A stretch of 64,000 bases of DNA from Nitrososphaerota archaeon (GTDB lineage: Archaea; Thermoproteota; Nitrososphaeria; Conexivisphaerales; UBA164). Below are positions 55,438 through 63,296 of the stretch, in pieces. The notes beneath the pieces are model-generated. The model ran no database searches, was not told the origin of the DNA, and was given only the letters and a program-made list of their open reading frames with translations. Made by a program: the position numbers and the translations under genes. The DNA is taken from positions 9,395 to 73,394 of the forward strand of contig WYER01000019.1 in NCBI GenBank assembly GCA_009903795.1. The letters are read 5' to 3'. Within the stretch, counting starts at the first letter, position 1. Each line of letters begins with the position of its first letter.

Positions 55438-56745
55438 ATGGGAAAAAATAATTTGCGAAGCTTCTTAAGTAGTCTTCAAGATAAAAAACTGCTTAAAGAT
55501 TTAGGTGAAGCCGAAACAAAATATGAAGTTGCGCTTTTTGAAAAAAATACAAACTCACCTATTAGATTAAGACCTAAGGGAAAAAATGGCTACATAGTAT
55601 CTAACCTTATAATATCAGAAGAAACTATGGCCATCGCTTTAGGAACAGATCCACAAAACGTTCACGATAAGTTCATTTCCTCTGTTGAATCACCAAAGAA
55701 AATTTCGCTTAATGAGACTGATTTAAAAGAATATGTTAAAATTTCAGATGAAAATATCCCAGCAGTATGGCACTTCGAAAATGACCTCGGTTACTACATT
55801 ACTTCTAGCATAGCTATAGCTCAGAGCCCTGATAAAAAAATATTAAACGCCAGCGTGCACAGGATAAGGCTGCTTGGAAATGAAAAAGGCGTTATAAGAA
55901 TGGTAGAAGGCAGACACCTTCATACCATTTGGAACATGTGGAAGAACGCGGGCAAAGACATGCCTGTAGCCATCGTTATAGGGGTTCACCCAGCTGTAGA
56001 GCTTGCAGCTGCTTATCAAGCTCCTTTGGGCACATTCGAAATGGATATTGCTAATTCTCTTGTTGATGGTCTAGAATTTTATAGAAGCCCTGAACACGGG
56101 TTGCCTATACCCGAAGCGGAATTTATCATTGAAGGATATGTAAGCAAAGATGAAAAGGATTATGACAGCATGGTGGAGATGCTTGGCAACTATGACCATA
56201 TAAGACAACAGCCTGTAATTAGGTTTGAAAAAATATACAGTAAAAACGAACCAATTTATTGGGATGTTTTGCCAGGAAGTACTGAGCACAGATGGCTCAT
56301 GGGTTTCCCCGTAGAAGCTAAACTGAACAAAGAAGTAAAAAGCTCTGTTCCATCGGTAAAAAAAGTTTATTTGACAGAAGGAGGTAGCAAATGGCTTCAT
56401 GCGGTCATTCAGATTAACAAAAAACTTGAAGGCGAGCCCGTTAACGCTATGATAGCGGCATTCGCTGCTCATCCTTCACTTAAGCTTGTAATAGTAGTTG
56501 ATGAGGATATAGATCCCAAAAACCCTGTTGATGTCGAAAGAGCTATAGCTACGCGTTTTCAGGCATCAAGGGGTTTGCTCGTTATCAAGAATGCCAAAGG
56601 TTCAAGCCTTGATCCTTCAAGCGATCAAGAAATGCTTCTGACTGACAAGCTTGGCATAGATGCCACGATACCTTTAAAAGCAAACAAAGATAGGTTTAGA
56701 GAAGCAAAAATACCTGGCGAATCAAAAAATGAACATAAAAGCTGA
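55438..56745 (+). CDS. UbiD-family decarboxylase, probable anhydromevalonate phosphate decarboxylase
   Basis: YITSSI, NASVHR, RMVEGRHL, GVHP, EFIIEG, EH..LMG, VVDEDID, KLGIDAT; coupled to DUF126. Confidence 0.85.
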   Translation: MGKNNLRSFLSSLQDKKLLKDLGEAETKYEVALFEKNTNSPIRLRPKGKNGYIVSNLIISEETMAIALGTDPQNVHDKFISSVESPKKISLNETDLKEYVKISDENIPAVWHFENDLGYYITSSIAIAQSPDKKILNASVHRIRLLGNEKGVIRMVEGRHLHTIWNMWKNAGKDMPVAIVIGVHPAVELAAAYQAPLGTFEMDIANSLVDGLEFYRSPEHGLPIPEAEFIIEGYVSKDEKDYDSMVEMLGNYDHIRQQPVIRFEKIYSKNEPIYWDVLPGSTEHRWLMGFPVEAKLNKEVKSSVPSVKKVYLTEGGSKWLHAVIQINKKLEGEPVNAMIAAFAAHPSLKLVIVVDEDIDPKNPVDVERAIATRFQASRGLLVIKNAKGSSLDPSSDQEMLLTDKLGIDATIPLKANKDRFREAKIPGESKNEHKS

Positions 56746-57133
56746 AGTAATAGTAGAAGGCCCATCAATGATAAGGTCTACGCTAAAAGTAATAGATAAA
56801 CCGATTTCGTTCCTTGGCATGGTTAATCCTAAGACGGGAATTTTAAAGGCTGATGATAATCCTATTGAAATAACGGGGGTTATTCTTTCTTTTCCTTATA
56901 TGATAGGTAGCACAGTAGCTCCGTACATAATTTACAGCCTCAAGAAAAATAAAAAGGCACCTTTAGCTATAATATGCTCATCAGTAAACGCGCTCCTTGC
57001 TTCAGGCTGTGCGATAAGCGATATACCGCTTTTAATAGTTTCACAAAGCGATTTTGAACTTCTTAAAAAATACAAAGAAAGAATAATAAAAGTAAACACA
57101 AAAAGCGGGGAGATCTTAATCGATGAGCAATAG
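56729..57133 (+). CDS. DUF126 / AcnX swivel domain, probable phosphomevalonate dehydratase small subunit
   Basis: PISFLGMVNPKTG, GSTVAPYIIYSLKKNKKAP, LLASGCAISDIP. Confidence 0.85.
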   Translation: MNIKAEVIVEGPSMIRSTLKVIDKPISFLGMVNPKTGILKADDNPIEITGVILSFPYMIGSTVAPYIIYSLKKNKKAPLAIICSSVNALLASGCAISDIPLLIVSQSDFELLKKYKERIIKVNTKSGEILIDEQ

Positions 57134-57911
57134 AATAGATCTCGAAGCTCTCTTATCGTTAATTTATGAAAGGTACAGAGTGACAAAACCTATCGAGCGC
57201 GAAGAAATTTTACCTTATGTAAAAGATGAAATGCTTGCTGAAGACGTTGTCAATTCATACCGGCACATCATCTCGGAAAAAAATTATTTAAAAAAAGGAA
57301 AGTTTTTAGTAGTCTCTGGAATCGATAAATCTGGTAAAGAAACTCAAACGATTTCGGGCGGCGGATGTGTTAAACCTTTAAGCAAATTTTTAACCGAAAA
57401 AGGTTACAGAGTTTATACCATAATGCAGCCTTCTTACGAAACAAGGCTGGGAGGGCTAATAAAATATTACCTTACTGAAAACAAAAAAACAATAAAGCTG
57501 GCATGGATACTTTGGAGCCTTGACAGGGCCCAGCACGCTGAAAACGTTATCAGATGGTTAGGTGAGGAAAAGAACATAGTTTTAGCAAAACGCTGGAGCG
57601 AAAGCAACGTAGTTTATCATGTAGCAAAAGGCATAAAGGCTGATGAAATAATTAGCTTTGAGAAAAACATACCAAAGCAGGATCTTACTCTGATACTCGA
57701 TATAAAGCCAGAAACTTCTTTAAAGCGTAATGCAAACCCTGATGCTTACGAAAACCTTGGCTTTCTTAAGCTTGTTTGGAAGAATTATATAAACTTAAAC
57801 AACTATTATCCTTATGGAGATAAAATATACATAGAAGGAGAAGATGATCCTTGCACTGTAAATTTTACCCTGCTTTCCGTTGTGAACGATTACCTTGAAC
57901 GCCAGGTTTGA
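57123..57911 (+). CDS. tmk: Thymidylate kinase with N-terminal extension
   Basis: VSGIDKSGKETQ P-loop, LDRAQH, KRWSESNVVY, QDLTLILDI, AYEN..FL. Confidence 0.82.
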   Translation: MSNRIDLEALLSLIYERYRVTKPIEREEILPYVKDEMLAEDVVNSYRHIISEKNYLKKGKFLVVSGIDKSGKETQTISGGGCVKPLSKFLTEKGYRVYTIMQPSYETRLGGLIKYYLTENKKTIKLAWILWSLDRAQHAENVIRWLGEEKNIVLAKRWSESNVVYHVAKGIKADEIISFEKNIPKQDLTLILDIKPETSLKRNANPDAYENLGFLKLVWKNYINLNNYYPYGDKIYIEGEDDPCTVNFTLLSVVNDYLERQV

Positions 57912-58563: not shown

Positions 58564-59295
58564 ATGCACAATAAACTTTTGCCTACTTACATAAAGTTCG
58601 TGGAGGGCTATCCAGCCCTTTTAATATTTAACAGATACTTAGCTATAGCAGACCTTCACATAGGATACGAAATTTCAGAAAGAGAAAACGGTATTCATAT
58701 ACCAATACAGAAAGCGAGGTACGTAAAAAGAATAAAAGAACTTAAGGATCTTACGGGTGCTGAAGAGCTTATAATAGTTGGAGATGTAAAGGACAGCATA
58801 ATGATGCCTAATGCAGAAGAAATAAGCGAACTGATATCAATTTTTGAAGAAATTTCCAAGCTATTTAAGATAACCATTATACAGGGAAACCATGATGCAT
58901 ACATAGATAAAATTCTAAGGAATTTTGCCAGCTTTGCGGGGGCTGAGGGTATAGTTCTAAAAAATGGAAGGGCAAAAGTTGCGCTTGCTCACGGCCATGC
59001 AAGACCTTCTGATGAATGCATGAAAAGCAGCACGCTGATTCTTGCACATCTGCATTTTTACATAAAATATGAAAACAGCAAGTATCCGGTTTGGCTTGTT
59101 GGAAGAAAAAACAAAAAGACCATAATTCTAATGCCCCCGTTTAACGATCTGTTATCTGGATATTATGTAGAAGACGTTGAAGCAAAGGTGCCTTTTACCG
59201 ATTTTAAGCTTCAGGAGTTAAAAGTAATAACTCTGGATGGCTACGACTTAGGTACGCTGAAAAACCTTAAAAGCATAATAGAAGAAGCTGATTAA
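58564..59295 (+). CDS. Calcineurin-like metallophosphoesterase
   Basis: IADLHIGYE, GDVKD, GNHD, HGH, AHLH, MPPFN. Confidence 0.85.
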   Translation: MHNKLLPTYIKFVEGYPALLIFNRYLAIADLHIGYEISERENGIHIPIQKARYVKRIKELKDLTGAEELIIVGDVKDSIMMPNAEEISELISIFEEISKLFKITIIQGNHDAYIDKILRNFASFAGAEGIVLKNGRAKVALAHGHARPSDECMKSSTLILAHLHFYIKYENSKYPVWLVGRKNKKTIILMPPFNDLLSGYYVEDVEAKVPFTDFKLQELKVITLDGYDLGTLKNLKSIIEEAD

Positions 59296-59367
59296 AAATG
59301 CCAAGACTTTAAACAAGAGCTTTGCGAATCAAAATGCTTTTTAATACGTTGTTACCATGATTTTGAT

Positions 59368-59613
59368 ATGAATACAGATCAAATTTTGGGTGCAGCAATA
59401 ATGATTATAAGCATAATAGCTATAATTGTATATGGATATTTGATCTTCACGTATCCCCTGATAGTTTTGCAGATAACGGTTTTCCTTGTTATAGCTGTTA
59501 TTTTGGGCATCCTTGCATGGATAGGTTATACGCTTTTAATAACGCCTGCTCCTAAGCCCGTTGAAGAAACATCAGAAAGCAACAAACAAATTGAACAAAC
59601 AGAACAGAAATGA
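59368..59613 (+). CDS. Small two-TM membrane protein with a polar tail
   Basis: Two hydrophobic helices, AWIGYTLLITPAPKP, charged C-terminus; ATGA overlap with the next gene. Confidence 0.7.
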   Translation: MNTDQILGAAIMIISIIAIIVYGYLIFTYPLIVLQITVFLVIAVILGILAWIGYTLLITPAPKPVEETSESNKQIEQTEQK

Positions 59614-60335
59614 AGAATTATGCGATAATTTTTGACCCAAGGCTCAAAAAATTAGCTTCTTCTCTATCAAAAATTAGTGAAGCACCAGCATATCAGGCAG
59701 GAACTAATGTAATTTACGATAGGTATATGGTGCTTTGGAGTTACAGGACAAACTATGAACAAGAGAGAATAAAACTTCAGAGAATTTTAAAAGAACTGAA
59801 CGATTTGGGTTACATAGAAGTACTGCTTTTGCTCCCAGCGCCATATCAAAAGGGAGGAGATCAATCAAAATTTATGGAAGAAATGGCCGCGTTTGATTTT
59901 GTTGGCAGAATAATATTTTTCGACTTGACACCAGTTAGCAAGATAGGGCTTACGCCGAGACCTTCAGTTAACCTTTCTGCTATACCAACTCTTATCAAGT
60001 TTCTAAAAGAAAACGGTATAAAAACAAGGGTCATGACTTTTAATTCAGAACTTACGACTCAGGCGAAGATAATAGAAAATTCTGTGGGAAAAAGCGAAGA
60101 TTTTGTTATGCTGATAGATAACTACGTAGATGATCCTGAAAAATACATTCCTATACTCGAGACCTACAAGGAAAAAGGAATAAAAACATATCTTTTTTCC
60201 ACTTTTTTTGCATTATCACCAGAACCGATAAGCGGCATGACTCAAGTCATTACAACTAACGCTATACCATGGGATGGAGCCATAATTCTTGATATATCAT
60301 CTTCAATAGCTGAATTTGTTGATGCTGTAAGTTGA
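59610..60335 (+). CDS. Degenerate ribose-phosphate pyrophosphokinase (PRS)-like protein, predicted inactive
   Basis: Collinear with archaeal PRS (ELNDLG..V..LLP, NLSAIPTL, VITTNAIP, LDISSSIAEF); MLIDNYVDDPEK replaces IIDDIISTGGT; no RQDR; catalytic loop missing. Confidence 0.65.
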   Translation: MKNYAIIFDPRLKKLASSLSKISEAPAYQAGTNVIYDRYMVLWSYRTNYEQERIKLQRILKELNDLGYIEVLLLLPAPYQKGGDQSKFMEEMAAFDFVGRIIFFDLTPVSKIGLTPRPSVNLSAIPTLIKFLKENGIKTRVMTFNSELTTQAKIIENSVGKSEDFVMLIDNYVDDPEKYIPILETYKEKGIKTYLFSTFFALSPEPISGMTQVITTNAIPWDGAIILDISSSIAEFVDAVS

Positions 60336-61210
60336 GATGCGCAATAGCTGTCGATGTAGGAGCTACGAACTTAAGGCTGGCAACTTTCACAGGTAAGGAG
60401 CTTAAGGATAGGGTTTCTTTTAAACTGCAAGGTTCTGTTAACCCGTTGAACTATATAATCGGTTACCTTGAAAAGTTTTCAAAATCATGCAACTATATCG
60501 GCATAGCCAGTGCTGGACCAATGAATTTAAAAAAGGCTACGGTTACTTTAATAAACTATAACAATTTAACAATTAATTACTTAGATTCTTTAAAAGGATA
60601 CGGCAAGGTTTACATAACCAACGACTGCATAGCAGGCATTTTGGCTGAAAAAAAGTTTGGAGAAGCAAAATGGGCAGAAAACGCAGTTTACCTTACGTTC
60701 AGCAGCGGCATAGGGGCTGGCGTTATGGTGGACGGCCACATATTGATAGGTAAAGATGGAAACGCACACGAAGTAGGACACATTGTGTTGAATTATGAAG
60801 ATAGTATTGAATGCGGATGCGGAAAAACGGGTCATTGGGAAGCTTTTTGCGGCGGAAAGTCCATGCCGAAATTTTTTCAAAAAACAACAGGTAAAATTGT
60901 TAATAGCCCTGAAGAAATTTTTAAGTTGTACTACGATGGCAATCAGAAGGCTGCAGAGTTTATAGAAAAATGCATGAACATAAACGCAGCAGGATTGGCC
61001 AGTATTATAAACGTTTATGATCCAGAAGTTATTGTATTAAGTGGCAGTGTTTACCTTCATAACGAAGAACTTTTCTTAAAAAAACTTCCGCAACTTACAA
61101 AAAAATACGTGATGAACAGAATGCCAGCTATTAAAACAGCGACTCTCAGGGAAGATGCTGTTATAGTCGGAGCCGGCATTTTGGCATTTTTAAACGGTAA
61201 GCTTCCTTAA
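60332..61210 (+). CDS. ROK-family sugar kinase (glucokinase-like)
   Basis: AVDVGATN, NDCIAG, GIGAG, EVGH, CGCGKTGHWEA. Confidence 0.9.
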   Translation: MRCAIAVDVGATNLRLATFTGKELKDRVSFKLQGSVNPLNYIIGYLEKFSKSCNYIGIASAGPMNLKKATVTLINYNNLTINYLDSLKGYGKVYITNDCIAGILAEKKFGEAKWAENAVYLTFSSGIGAGVMVDGHILIGKDGNAHEVGHIVLNYEDSIECGCGKTGHWEAFCGGKSMPKFFQKTTGKIVNSPEEIFKLYYDGNQKAAEFIEKCMNINAAGLASIINVYDPEVIVLSGSVYLHNEELFLKKLPQLTKKYVMNRMPAIKTATLREDAVIVGAGILAFLNGKLP

Positions 61211-61214
61211 GAAT

Positions 61215-61745
61215 CTAACCTATTTCGCTTATCCCTTTTGATGCCGTTGAGTTACAAAGATCATTAACAAGCTCTTCAACGCTATCGTAAAATCTGAGTC
61301 TTCCATTTTTTCTTTGATCAGGAAACTCCCCCAAATTTTCTAGCTTGTCTGAAGGCATTCCATTGCCTTTTAAAACAAATACTTCCTTTCCCATAGCATA
61401 ACCCATAAGCGCTTCAATCATAGTTCCCGCACTACCTCCAAGCGCTATCAAAAAATCTGAAGATCTGACCAAAGGCACAGACCTAGCCCTGTACTCTTCA
61501 CCAGTTTTTATCAAATAGACGCCTTTAGGAACTTTTACGTTTTCGTTTTCAATCGGAAGCAAAAGTAAAGCTGTTAAATTAAGTTTGGAAGCTTGATCCA
61601 CCACTGTCTTCATTAGACCCCAGTATCCCCCTAAGAGCAAAACTGGATCTTCACAATGTTTCTTTATAAGTTCCAAGAGTTTTTGCGTTTCTTTAATGAG
61701 CTTTTCTGGGACGTCTCCACTATGAGCGGCTATCCCTATTTGCAT
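61215..61745 (-). CDS. LOG / Rossmann-fold nucleotide-binding family protein
   Basis: LLGGYWGLMK, RSVPLVRSSD..IALGGSAGT..E. Confidence 0.8.
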   Translation of the reverse strand: MQIGIAAHSGDVPEKLIKETQKLLELIKKHCEDPVLLLGGYWGLMKTVVDQASKLNLTALLLLPIENENVKVPKGVYLIKTGEEYRARSVPLVRSSDFLIALGGSAGTMIEALMGYAMGKEVFVLKGNGMPSDKLENLGEFPDQRKNGRLRFYDSVEELVNDLCNSTASKGISEIG

Positions 61746-61822: not shown

Positions 61823-62548
61823 TCAAACAGTTTTTTTATTTTCCTCGTTTTTATTTTTGTTTTTATTAATACTTTCTATTACGAGCGGTGCTACTTCTTC
61901 AAAAGCGTACCTTACTATATCATCAACCGTTCCTCTTGAAAACATTGTTATAACACAATTTCTGGTTAAACCTATTATTTGCGATATGCTTTTAGCTCTT
62001 ACTACTATATACCATAAAAGTCCGTGTTCTTGGTACATTTTAAAAAGATCTGTCTGGGAAAGCGCATCCCCATAAAGGGCAAGGACGTTTACGTTTGGTA
62101 TGTCTATCTGATCAAAGTACGCAACCCTCGTTTCTTCGAGGCTTTTATTATAGTAATCTAGGAATATGTTAGGGTCTATTCTTGCTTCAACTACATACCC
62201 TGGCCTAATAAACACTGCTTTGCTAAATTCGTTTGCCAAATAATTGGCAAAAGGCTTTTTAGCAAGTATGAAAAGGAAATAGTAACCTCCTATGTTTTTC
62301 ACGAAAAACTGAACCTTCAGCGTTGAAACCTCGGGTTTGTACCCCTCTTTTGTTCCTACTTTTATAACTTTATCATAGTAGATCGTGCCGTTAAGGGATG
62401 ATTCATCATATCCGTTTACAGAAAATTCAAAATTTAACTGGGCGTGCGTTTCTTCGTCTTCTCTTGTTATTTTAAAGCTCGCTAGCTTCTCCGCTATAAA
62501 TGCAATGCTCTGTTCTGTGTTTATTCTAAACAGCTTTCCTGCTAACAT
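61823..62548 (-). CDS. Conserved archaeal hypothetical protein
   Basis: FDQIDIPNV..LALYG, WYIV, GLTRNCVITMFS resemble a TACK-conserved uncharacterised family I recall; in operon with the PAC2 gene. Confidence 0.7.
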   Translation of the reverse strand: MLAGKLFRINTEQSIAFIAEKLASFKITREDEETHAQLNFEFSVNGYDESSLNGTIYYDKVIKVGTKEGYKPEVSTLKVQFFVKNIGGYYFLFILAKKPFANYLANEFSKAVFIRPGYVVEARIDPNIFLDYYNKSLEETRVAYFDQIDIPNVNVLALYGDALSQTDLFKMYQEHGLLWYIVVRAKSISQIIGLTRNCVITMFSRGTVDDIVRYAFEEVAPLVIESINKNKNKNEENKKTV

Positions 62549-62570: not shown

Positions 62571-63296
62571 TTAGGTATATATGTTTGTGGGTGGCTTAAA
62601 TTCCTGTTGTGATGTTTCTTTTGCTAGTTCTGCTTCAATTGTTTCTGCTCCTTTTATAAGTGGAGTGACATCTACTTCAAAGCCATAATATTTTGACAGC
62701 GTTTCAACAGCAACGCTTGCAGCTCTAGGATCTACTCTATCAGGAGAAGCATAAGCAAGAAGAGCTATTGCTGGAAAGTTTTTTATCTCGAAATAATTCA
62801 AGAGTATAGCTACTGGTCCAACTATGATATGTTCATCTTCCAAAGGCTTAGCCTCAGAAAGTATTCCCCTGAGCTTATATGCGCTTGTTGCTGCAATTCT
62901 GTACCTGCTGTCATCTGTCCTTAAGGTGGAATCTAACCCCCCAACGAGGAATACCTCTTTAACGCCTTTTTTGATTATCTGATCCGCAAAGCTTCTGTAA
63001 AACTTTAATTCTTTATCTTTCTGTATTGGAACGTCAACCTTAAATATTGCTATGTTTTCATACACAAAAATTTCATAAGGCGTGCTTATCATGCCGTTGA
63101 GCAAGGTAGAAACCGGTGCGGAATCTTCGTAATCAACTATGCAACACCTCTTTACGGGAAGCTTTTGAACGAGATACTTTACAGTCCAGTAACCAGTTGC
63201 GCCTATACCATGAAATCCGCTTATTAAAATTTTACCCTTTAACGATGCATTCTTCGGGTATATAGAGACGTAACTTTTATAACTCAACTTTTTCAC
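62571..63296 (-). CDS. PAC2-family proteasome assembly chaperone
   Basis: LISGFHGIGATG, LVGGLD, IVGPVAILL, VDPRAAS, VDVTPL. Confidence 0.85.
   Translation of the reverse strand: MKKLSYKSYVSIYPKNASLKGKILISGFHGIGATGYWTVKYLVQKLPVKRCCIVDYEDSAPVSTLLNGMISTPYEIFVYENIAIFKVDVPIQKDKELKFYRSFADQIIKKGVKEVFLVGGLDSTLRTDDSRYRIAATSAYKLRGILSEAKPLEDEHIIVGPVAILLNYFEIKNFPAIALLAYASPDRVDPRAASVAVETLSKYYGFEVDVTPLIKGAETIEAELAKETSQQEFKPPTNIYT

Follow-up and report, generated by a model that had tools for sequence, protein, structure and literature searches.

What does an archaeon retain when it keeps, in frame and under selection, the gene of an enzyme whose active site has gone? The question is raised by a 241-codon gene in a stretch of 64,000 nucleotides (hereafter the window; contig WYER01000019.1, positions 9,395 to 73,394 of the forward strand, G+C 35-43%) from a Nitrososphaerota archaeon of the order Conexivisphaerales. 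The gene stands between those of an 81-residue membrane protein and of a ROK-family sugar kinase, and the original prediction, made from the letters alone, had taken it for a paralogue of phosphoribosyl pyrophosphate (PRPP) synthetase (PRS, also written PRPS), devoid of catalytic elements and possibly anchored to the membrane, that would link sugar phosphorylation to PRPP metabolism as a scaffold or regulator. Here, I show from its sequence that the protein should be incapable of PRS chemistry; on balance, it is best read as an old PRS paralogue maintained as a pseudoenzyme, with a non-catalytic mode of binding. The features of the gene that bear on this are as follows.

59610..60335, plus strand: pseudo-PRS, a catalytically degenerate protein of predicted PRPP-synthetase fold, 241 aa (fold, profiles, site map, substitution rates)
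59841..59861, plus strand: PYQKGGD, residues 78-84, at the position of the PRS ATP-binding Y-A-R-Q-D-R (alignment, site map)
59919..59987, plus strand: FDLTPVSKIGLTPRPSVNLSAIP, residues 104-126, the most conserved block (matches PRS VDLH..QGFF..PVDNL)
60036..60053, plus strand: TFNSEL, residues 143-148, at the PP-loop position SPD.GG (alignment, site map)
60095..60096, plus strand: site of the catalytic-loop deletion, between residues 162 and 163 (alignment, site map)
60117..60143, plus strand: DNYVDDPEK, residues 170-178, at the ribose-5-phosphate loop DD..(D/S)TGGT (alignment, site map)

Fold, active site and upkeep of the protein

The protein rises above no Pfam or NCBIfam cutoff (its best PRS-related Pfam match is PF14572, E 0.12, 12.7 bits against a cutoff of 27; NCBIfam returned no match), and neither the library searches nor those of PDB sequences matched it to any other enzyme family. 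In the PDB, plain and profile searches alike retrieved only the C-terminal half of human PAP39/PAP41 (E ~1e-4), a weak match driven by the DNYVDDPEK segment. An AlphaFold2 model built from ten orthologues (mean predicted local distance difference test score, pLDDT, 82; predicted template-modelling score, pTM, 0.75) shows two tandem phosphoribosyltransferase (PRTase)-type domains in the PRS arrangement. Compared with the PDB by Foldseek, it finds PRPP synthetases in all ten best places (human PRPS1/2, B. subtilis), with E values of 9e-8 to 6e-5, probability 1.00 and TMq 0.68-0.73 (about 0.72) over the full length; the matches that follow these ten fall below a TM of 0.3. Alignment of profiles by hhalign, with reference PRS sequences verified against PDB chains 1U9Y, 4TWB and 4S2U, is collinear with the enzymes of M. 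jannaschii, S. solfataricus and E. coli, residues 4-237 running along 1-284 of the M. jannaschii protein (probability 93%, E 4e-8). Moreover, the family profile with its distant members included reaches a bona fide PRS, P0020, which carries PF13793, PF14572 and PF00156, at E 4e-5 among 5.8 billion proteins. The predicted PRS fold and homology are thus well above chance, and the check that had been proposed for the two-domain fold, profile search plus structure prediction, came out in its favour.

The end-to-end collinearity claimed at the outset stands as well; the archaeal affinity that went with it calls for a correction, as the profile scores lean the other way. By hhalign, the probability is 86-96% against class-I-type PRS and 13-76% against the archaeal class III, and no class III structure appears among the Foldseek matches at E <=1e-3. 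With profiles as small as these, this is a hint only that the family is nearer class-I-type PRS than class III, in which case its ancestor could have been a gene other than the resident class III one. Two further similarities, a sub-threshold HAD-hydrolase match (E 5e-4) and matches to PPR-repeat entries of the PDB, were rejected: they are short, low-complexity-like, limited to residues 127-153 and contradicted by the fold.

The fate of the active site was read from a joint alignment, for which 17 catalytic and ligand-contact positions were taken from E. coli PRPS (contacts of ADP, ribose-5-phosphate (R5P) and Mg: PMC9232217), with the inactivating mutations of human PRS1 added (activity is abolished in K194A and R196A and no longer normal in H130A and F35A; PMC4363470). 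Only one of the 17, D220 (D170 in the 241-residue protein), is invariantly kept. The flag-hairpin residues F35, D37 and E39 fall in a 14-residue deletion; R96-Q97-D98-R99 has become K81-G82-G83-D84, the PRS motif PY..ARQDR now reading PYQKGGD, after which seven residues of the regulatory flexible loop are missing. T107 takes the place of H131, N145 that of the PP-loop Mg ligand D170, and E147-L148 that of G172-G173. The flexible catalytic loop with K194 and R196 is gone altogether (E. coli residues 188-212, that is 25 residues or 28 alignment columns). Further on, D220-D221 reads D170-N171 and D224-T225-G226-G227-T228 reads D174-D175-P176-E177-K178; in other words, the R5P loop DDMIDTGGT of E. 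coli has turned into DNYVDDPEK. All three losses named in the original prediction (RQDR segment, catalytic loop, R5P loop) are therefore borne out by the site map, and those of the flag hairpin, of H131 and of the PP-loop aspartate come on top of them. The mapped residues of the PRS ATP site and the K194/R196 loop are all gone from this protein, only D220 of the Mg/R5P site is invariantly kept, and what the map shows is a molecule that should be incapable of PRS chemistry, be it the PRS-style binding of ATP and R5P or the transfer of pyrophosphate. The catalytic-loop deletion is common to every family member found, the most distant ones included, which points to a single, old origin.

Conservation has not left the site with the catalysis. 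It is densest in residues 104-126, which lie at the PRS stretch VDLH..QGFF..PVDNL, where the histidine 131 has become Thr107, and column identity is 0.86-0.93 across residues 95-130, which line the former active site; the loop 107-118 is conserved and yet has an AlphaFold pLDDT <50. The conserved polar residues of the former active-site cleft are D105, K111, S119, S123, D170, T215, T216, N217, W221 and D222, and polar residues invariant across the whole family are D9, D105, S123, D170 and T198.

The family is small. A word-indexed search returned nine orthologue clusters whose proteins all have exactly 241 aa and share 56-92% identity; they come from metagenome-assembled genomes (MAGs) of Nitrososphaeria and Conexivisphaerales. 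When 1.84 billion representatives were searched exhaustively with a profile, no more than three distant members came in (P0010, P0012 and P0013), and a second profile search brought P0018 and P0019. Among 1.8 to 5.8 billion proteins, the family amounts to some 15 sequence clusters, restricted to a few archaeal lineages. When one genome per GTDB species was scanned, 13 carriers emerged, all of them MAGs of Nitrososphaeria from hot springs, UBA160 and UBA164 among them, with 48-94% identity. The clade-A members in these 13 species-level genomes are all 241-243 aa long and free of frameshifts. The Nei-Gojobori ratio of nonsynonymous to synonymous substitution rates (dN/dS) of the pseudo-PRS against its closest relative is 0.117, to be set beside 0.086 for the ROK gene, 0.095 for a phosphoesterase and 0.126 for a thymidylate kinase nearby, and over the 13 loci, whatever the distance, the pseudo-PRS is a little better conserved than the ROK kinase next to it. 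The gene is maintained, not decaying: the intact frame first noticed goes together with constant length and with the purifying selection for which a dN/dS check had been advised. PRS-derived, disrupted in its catalytic residues and under purifying selection, the protein has the descent, the active-site damage and the selective upkeep expected of a PRPS pseudoenzyme, and the name pseudo-PRS is supported.

The operon, its neighbours and the small membrane protein

The three plus-strand open reading frames (ORFs) are present as first described (59368-59613, 59610-60335 and 60332-61210). Around the pseudo-PRS gene the window holds the following.

58564..59295, plus strand: metallophosphoesterase (TIGR00024, SbcD-related archaeal type; Metallophos E 1.8e-5, TIGR00024 E 1.2e-29, below cutoff)
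59338..59346, plus strand: TATA-like TTTTTAATA, its centre ~26 nt 5' of ATG 59368 (sequence reading)
59368..59613, plus strand: small membrane protein with two transmembrane helices, 81 aa (ORF; conserved in orthologous loci)
60332..61210, plus strand: ROK-family sugar kinase, probable glucokinase, 292 aa, TTG start (Pfam ROK E 3e-43)
61215..61745, minus strand: SLOG cluster-4 / TIGR00725 (LOG-like) protein (Pfam LDcluster4 E 4.8e-15), convergent with the ROK gene

Both overlaps of 4 nt that had been reported can be read in the sequence: the first junction is aaATGAag, ATG 59610 overlapping the TGA of the 81-aa ORF, and the second gTTGAg, the ROK start TTG 60332 overlapping TGA 60333-60335. 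An alternative ATG at 60337, near the ROK start, is out of frame, and the orthologues begin at the TTG position. The three ORFs occupy different reading frames, with neither a stop read-through nor a CGGN step to join them.

Synteny was followed by tblastn of seven local window proteins against the 13 species-level loci. The membrane-protein gene stands immediately upstream of the pseudo-PRS in 13 of 13, always with an ATGA overlap or near-abutment; the ROK gene comes immediately downstream in 12 of the 13, and the phosphoesterase, separated from the operon by 72 nt in the window, is conserved upstream of the membrane-protein gene in all 12 loci whose sequence extends that far. A SLOG gene sits beside the ROK gene in 12 loci, in either orientation, while the PAC2-family gene and a conserved gene for another protein of 241 aa are found nearby in one of two arrangements, between which the four-gene block moves as a unit. 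Two assembled metatranscriptome contigs, from two runs, run across the junctions: one of 304 nt, 99% identical, spans 59395-59698 (membrane-protein gene into pseudo-PRS) and one of 1176 nt, 93% identical and hence of a relative, spans 59494-60666 (membrane-protein gene through pseudo-PRS into ROK). No contig of either run crosses the 72-nt gap upstream of 59368. With the TATA-like TTTTTAATA as predicted promoter, these contig limits would fit a possible leaderless transcript of three genes. The coupling to both neighbours that was proposed at first is thus kept over 48-94% identity and seen in RNA contigs, its ROK part being no property of the family at large (see below).

The ROK gene matches PF00480 over its full length (E 3e-43) and NF045551, ATP-dependent glucokinase, at E 6.5e-72, below cutoff; its best PDB match is the glucokinase 3VOV (E 2e-31), with DxGxT, the catalytic ND, GIGxG and the zinc motif CxCGxxGHxE aligned and these residues invariant in the orthologues. 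The downstream enzyme is a probable glucokinase.

Two helices of the 81-aa protein are hydrophobic, and behind a conserved TPAPKPVEE motif its tail is acidic; among the carriers, LAWIG.T is invariant and TPAPKP recurs. Two transmembrane helices followed by a charged helix may be likened to tethering subunits such as DPM3. A profile search with this protein drew at least 413 clusters of 75-124 aa from Bathyarchaeia, Thermofilaceae, Thermoproteales, Geothermarchaeota, Methanomethylicaceae and Nitrososphaeria, with the consensus M.KDQ..GA...SI.GI.VY.W...Q.TAF.AVA.VLGILAWIGYTLATTPPPKPIEEIEKE and a motif, LGILAWIGYTLATTPPPKPIEEIEKE, very well conserved across TACK archaea. NCBI and JGI often label the family 'transcriptional regulator'; it has no helix-turn-helix match. 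Of the two other contexts examined, one has the gene ahead of that for a 553-aa MG2-like protein and the other has it among glycosyltransferases; in the distant pseudo-PRS clades it is missing upstream. Since the family mostly occurs without a pseudo-PRS neighbour, the pseudo-PRS gene would have come to stand behind a widespread housekeeping-type gene in the Nitrososphaeria carrier lineage, and a dedicated membrane anchor is not implied. The coupled translation of the two suggests co-production; as a dedicated partner the membrane peptide was rejected on its wide distribution, and the membrane anchoring first envisaged is weakened accordingly.

The more distant relatives stand in other company. 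P0010 (256 aa, ~32% identical) comes after an adenosine deaminase gene and beside an adenine deaminase gene (L006 1832-3858; L007 166-4117), a purine-salvage and PRPP-consuming setting. P0012, P0013 and P0019 (244-259 aa, ~25% identical) have a THUMP/UPF0020 methyltransferase gene 3-4 nt downstream in a tRNA-processing neighbourhood; this RNA methyltransferase and an RNase-Z-like gene follow the pseudo-PRS at L014 8001-9745, L009 2451-4124 and L008 149-1758. None of the distant members has a Pfam match. All four are less degenerate, having kept the flag hairpin, the PP-loop Asp, T-H and GYF, and the same catalytic loop is gone. A family-wide ROK linkage was rejected on the contexts of P0010, P0012, P0013, P0019 and P0018; as judged from gene order, the linkage is a trait of the Conexivisphaerales-type clade, not of the whole family.

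Some other features of the neighbourhood may be recorded here. The SLOG cluster-4/LOG-like gene stays by the ROK gene even when flipped, being co-directional in UBA164 (L031 11729-12229, plus strand). LOG-type enzymes release ribose-5-phosphate from nucleotides; together with rpiA, about 4 kb away, this gives the neighbourhood a ribose-5-phosphate theme. The other 241-aa protein (61823-62548, minus strand), without a Pfam match and always beside the PAC2-family gene (62571-63296), has an identity of 63-96% in the same set of genomes and clearly surpasses pseudo-PRS, ROK and phosphoesterase in conservation. Genes for a UbiD-family protein, an AcnX-swivel small subunit and a thymidylate-kinase-domain protein (262 aa, with an N-terminal extension of ~60 aa) are chained by overlaps at 55438-57911 (plus strand), the first two identified by synteny with locus L010; this UbiD/AcnX pair presumably resembles the archaeal mevalonate-pathway decarboxylase/dehydratase set. 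In the lineage that lacks the adjacent ROK gene, an OrfB_IS605/Cas12f-like TnpB gene (L016 1848-3113) lies just upstream of the block from PAC2 to pseudo-PRS.

What the protein may do

As a maintained pseudoenzyme, the protein would keep the two-PRTase-domain fold without PRS catalysis, be produced with the membrane protein and the ROK glucokinase from one transcript by coupled translation, and act by non-catalytic binding. The PRS core and the conserved flexible loop of residues 104-126, at what is in PRS the bent-dimer and active-site face, would then form a surface for contact with proteins or for the sensing of a ligand, and the protein could modulate a partner enzyme in the route from glucose through glucose-6-phosphate, fructose-6-phosphate, ribulose-5-phosphate and R5P to PRPP. 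By analogy with PAP39/41 of animals, the canonical PRS may tentatively be proposed as that partner; the co-translated ROK glucokinase is a more doubtful candidate.

Several observations weigh against this reading. Clade A has lost the flag hairpin, which in PRS contributes to the bent-dimer contact, and this speaks against a PAP-like hetero-oligomer; the conserved polar residues of the cleft, from D105 to D222, could equally make up a new ligand site. The neighbours of the distant members (adenosine/adenine deaminase, THUMP methyltransferase) differ, so that there is no single family-wide partner, and even within clade A the position of ROK is taken, in one lineage (P0018; L016-L018, probably L034), by another gene that runs on the opposite strand. 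The RNA evidence consists of assembled contigs in which DNA carry-over is possible. Lastly, tblastn of four true PRS sequences against the window and 35 loci (535 kb) found no prs, and a regular-expression search for the PRTase/PRPP motif in six frames of the window found none either.

The main alternative, possible although clearly less favoured, is neofunctionalisation: the cleft would have been rebuilt for some other small molecule, for instance a pentose or nucleoside without phosphate, or a hexose phosphate from the ROK kinase, making the protein a sensor or a new catalyst and not a partner of PRS. D170, the first acid of the pair by which PRTases bind the ribose hydroxyls, is invariant across all clades, and the phosphate-binding TGGT has given way to an acidic DDPE. 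The conserved block 95-130 lines the former active site, where the low-pLDDT loop could become ordered on a ligand, and the genes around it (ROK, the LOG-like SLOG gene, phosphoesterase, rpiA, and for P0010 the adenosine/adenine deaminases) suit a ribose or nucleotide. On the other hand, no catalytic constellation can be named, the polar invariants of the whole family are few, no other enzyme family matches, and the varied gene contexts speak against one common substrate.

Two readings that give the operon partners a larger part are unlikely. According to one, the pseudo-PRS is held at the membrane by the 81-aa protein and holds the glucokinase there in turn, so that entering sugar would be phosphorylated on site. 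The overlap or near-abutment in every clade-A genome and the RNA contig across the first junction fit such a tethered complex, and the conserved, cytoplasm-type charged tail after TTP(A/P)PKP(V/I)EE could be a docking helix. The membrane family, however, with its at least 413 clusters across TACK archaea against some 15 of pseudo-PRS, elsewhere adjoins unrelated genes, and the distant pseudo-PRS clades do without it. The other, about as improbable, sees an ancient archaeal family of PRPS pseudoenzymes recruited to differing partners by lineage (glucokinase, purine deaminases, tRNA methyltransferase), in which, in Conexivisphaerales-type archaea, a membrane-proximal complex of pseudo-PRS, the small TACK membrane protein and the glucokinase would gate the flow of carbon from imported glucose to R5P and PRPP. 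If true, pseudoenzyme control of PRPP supply would be older than, or independent of, the eukaryotes.

Far less credible is the idea that the organism makes its PRPP with the 241-aa protein, as a true but extremely divergent synthetase. The JGI pipeline did name the distant member P0019 phosphoribosylpyrophosphate synthetase. Against this, the K194/R196 loop, in which single alanine changes abolish activity (PMC4363470), is absent, nothing remains of H131, D170 (E. coli numbering), the RQD motif, the flag residues or TGGT, and the family is missing from most archaea, all of which need PRPP. In addition, Supplementary Data 2 of PMC10833072 lists K00948, prsA, in 16 of the 20 first genomes (from JACIWG01, Conexivisphaerales and a new family); UBA164 and UBA160, which both carry a pseudo-PRS (L031 and L027, respectively), have one each. 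The same table has K00845, glk, in 20 of 20. These MAGs also have hxlB, of the reverse ribulose monophosphate route, in keeping with the pathway from glucose to PRPP set out above. Because the clade-A pseudo-PRS is "hypothetical" to NCBI and JGI and has no score against PRS models, the K00948 calls in UBA164 and UBA160 most likely denote a separate, canonical gene. Recent strain-specific decay, or a chance ORF, is ruled out for practical purposes by dN/dS and synteny, given a length fixed at 241-243 aa without frameshifts in 13 species-level genomes, conservation above that of ROK and RNA contigs over the gene.

Comparison with known systems

For the pseudoenzyme reading, the obvious counterparts are PAP39 and PAP41 (PRPSAP1/2; PDB 2C4K, 2JI4). 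In both cases the PRS fold is kept and the catalytic residues are lost, and the R5P loop is acidic (DDIIDDVES in PAP, DNYVDDPEK here). The PAPs are kept by selection alongside an active PRS; the archaeal protein is likewise under selection, and prsA is listed in the KEGG orthology table for two of its carriers. Common descent with the opisthokont PRPSAP group is not what the data show, the archaeal protein being of independent origin. It has 241 aa and four deletions, whereas the PAPs have 370-379 aa and insertions; they keep DLH and most of the N-domain, and its similarity to them is limited to the region of the degenerate R5P loop. Its operon partners, a glucokinase and a membrane protein, also set it apart from the PAPs, for which association with PRS is established.

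With class I PRS (E. coli, B. subtilis, human PRPS1/2; P0020 and P0021 of DPANN) the protein shares a fold match over the full length (TM 0.72), the D-L of DLH, (V/I)xNLSA and TxN(T/S)I; what they have and it lacks are the flag hairpin, RQD, His131, the PP-loop Asp, the catalytic loop and TGGT. The class III archaeal enzymes (M. jannaschii 1U9Y, S. solfataricus 4TWB) are alike in domain order and compact size; they carry (N/E)PH instead of DL, and all the catalytic elements that are absent here. PurR and PyrR use a PRTase-type domain for sensing and regulation and have kept a working PRPP-binding loop; the 241-aa protein has neither that loop nor a DNA- or RNA-binding domain.

Pseudoenzyme formation in this enzyme family is known to be recurrent: a 2026 preprint reports 37 events in eukaryotic PRPS, preserving the interfaces and joining the active enzyme (10.64898/2026.06.01.728777). 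The same pan-domain survey assigns archaeal PRPS diversity to classes III and XII and catalogues pseudoenzymes in eukaryotes only; as far as could be found, no prokaryotic PRPS pseudoenzyme is described in the literature. With this protein, prokaryotes would seem to have a first counterpart of the eukaryotic non-catalytic PRPS-associated proteins. PRPP synthesis is a choke point for the making of nucleotides, histidine, tryptophan and NAD, and a dead, strongly conserved PRS in archaea would show that the formation of pseudoenzymes at this point is not peculiar to eukaryotes. Small and thermostable, and from a family without a Pfam model, the protein offers a test case for what the PRS scaffold can do after catalysis is lost; the locus also flags a small membrane protein, widespread in TACK archaea under the database name "transcriptional regulator". 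To sum up, judged by its sequence, the 241-aa protein is PRPS-pseudoenzyme-like, lying outside the PAP orthologous group and, by any catalytic measure, outside the PRS enzymes.

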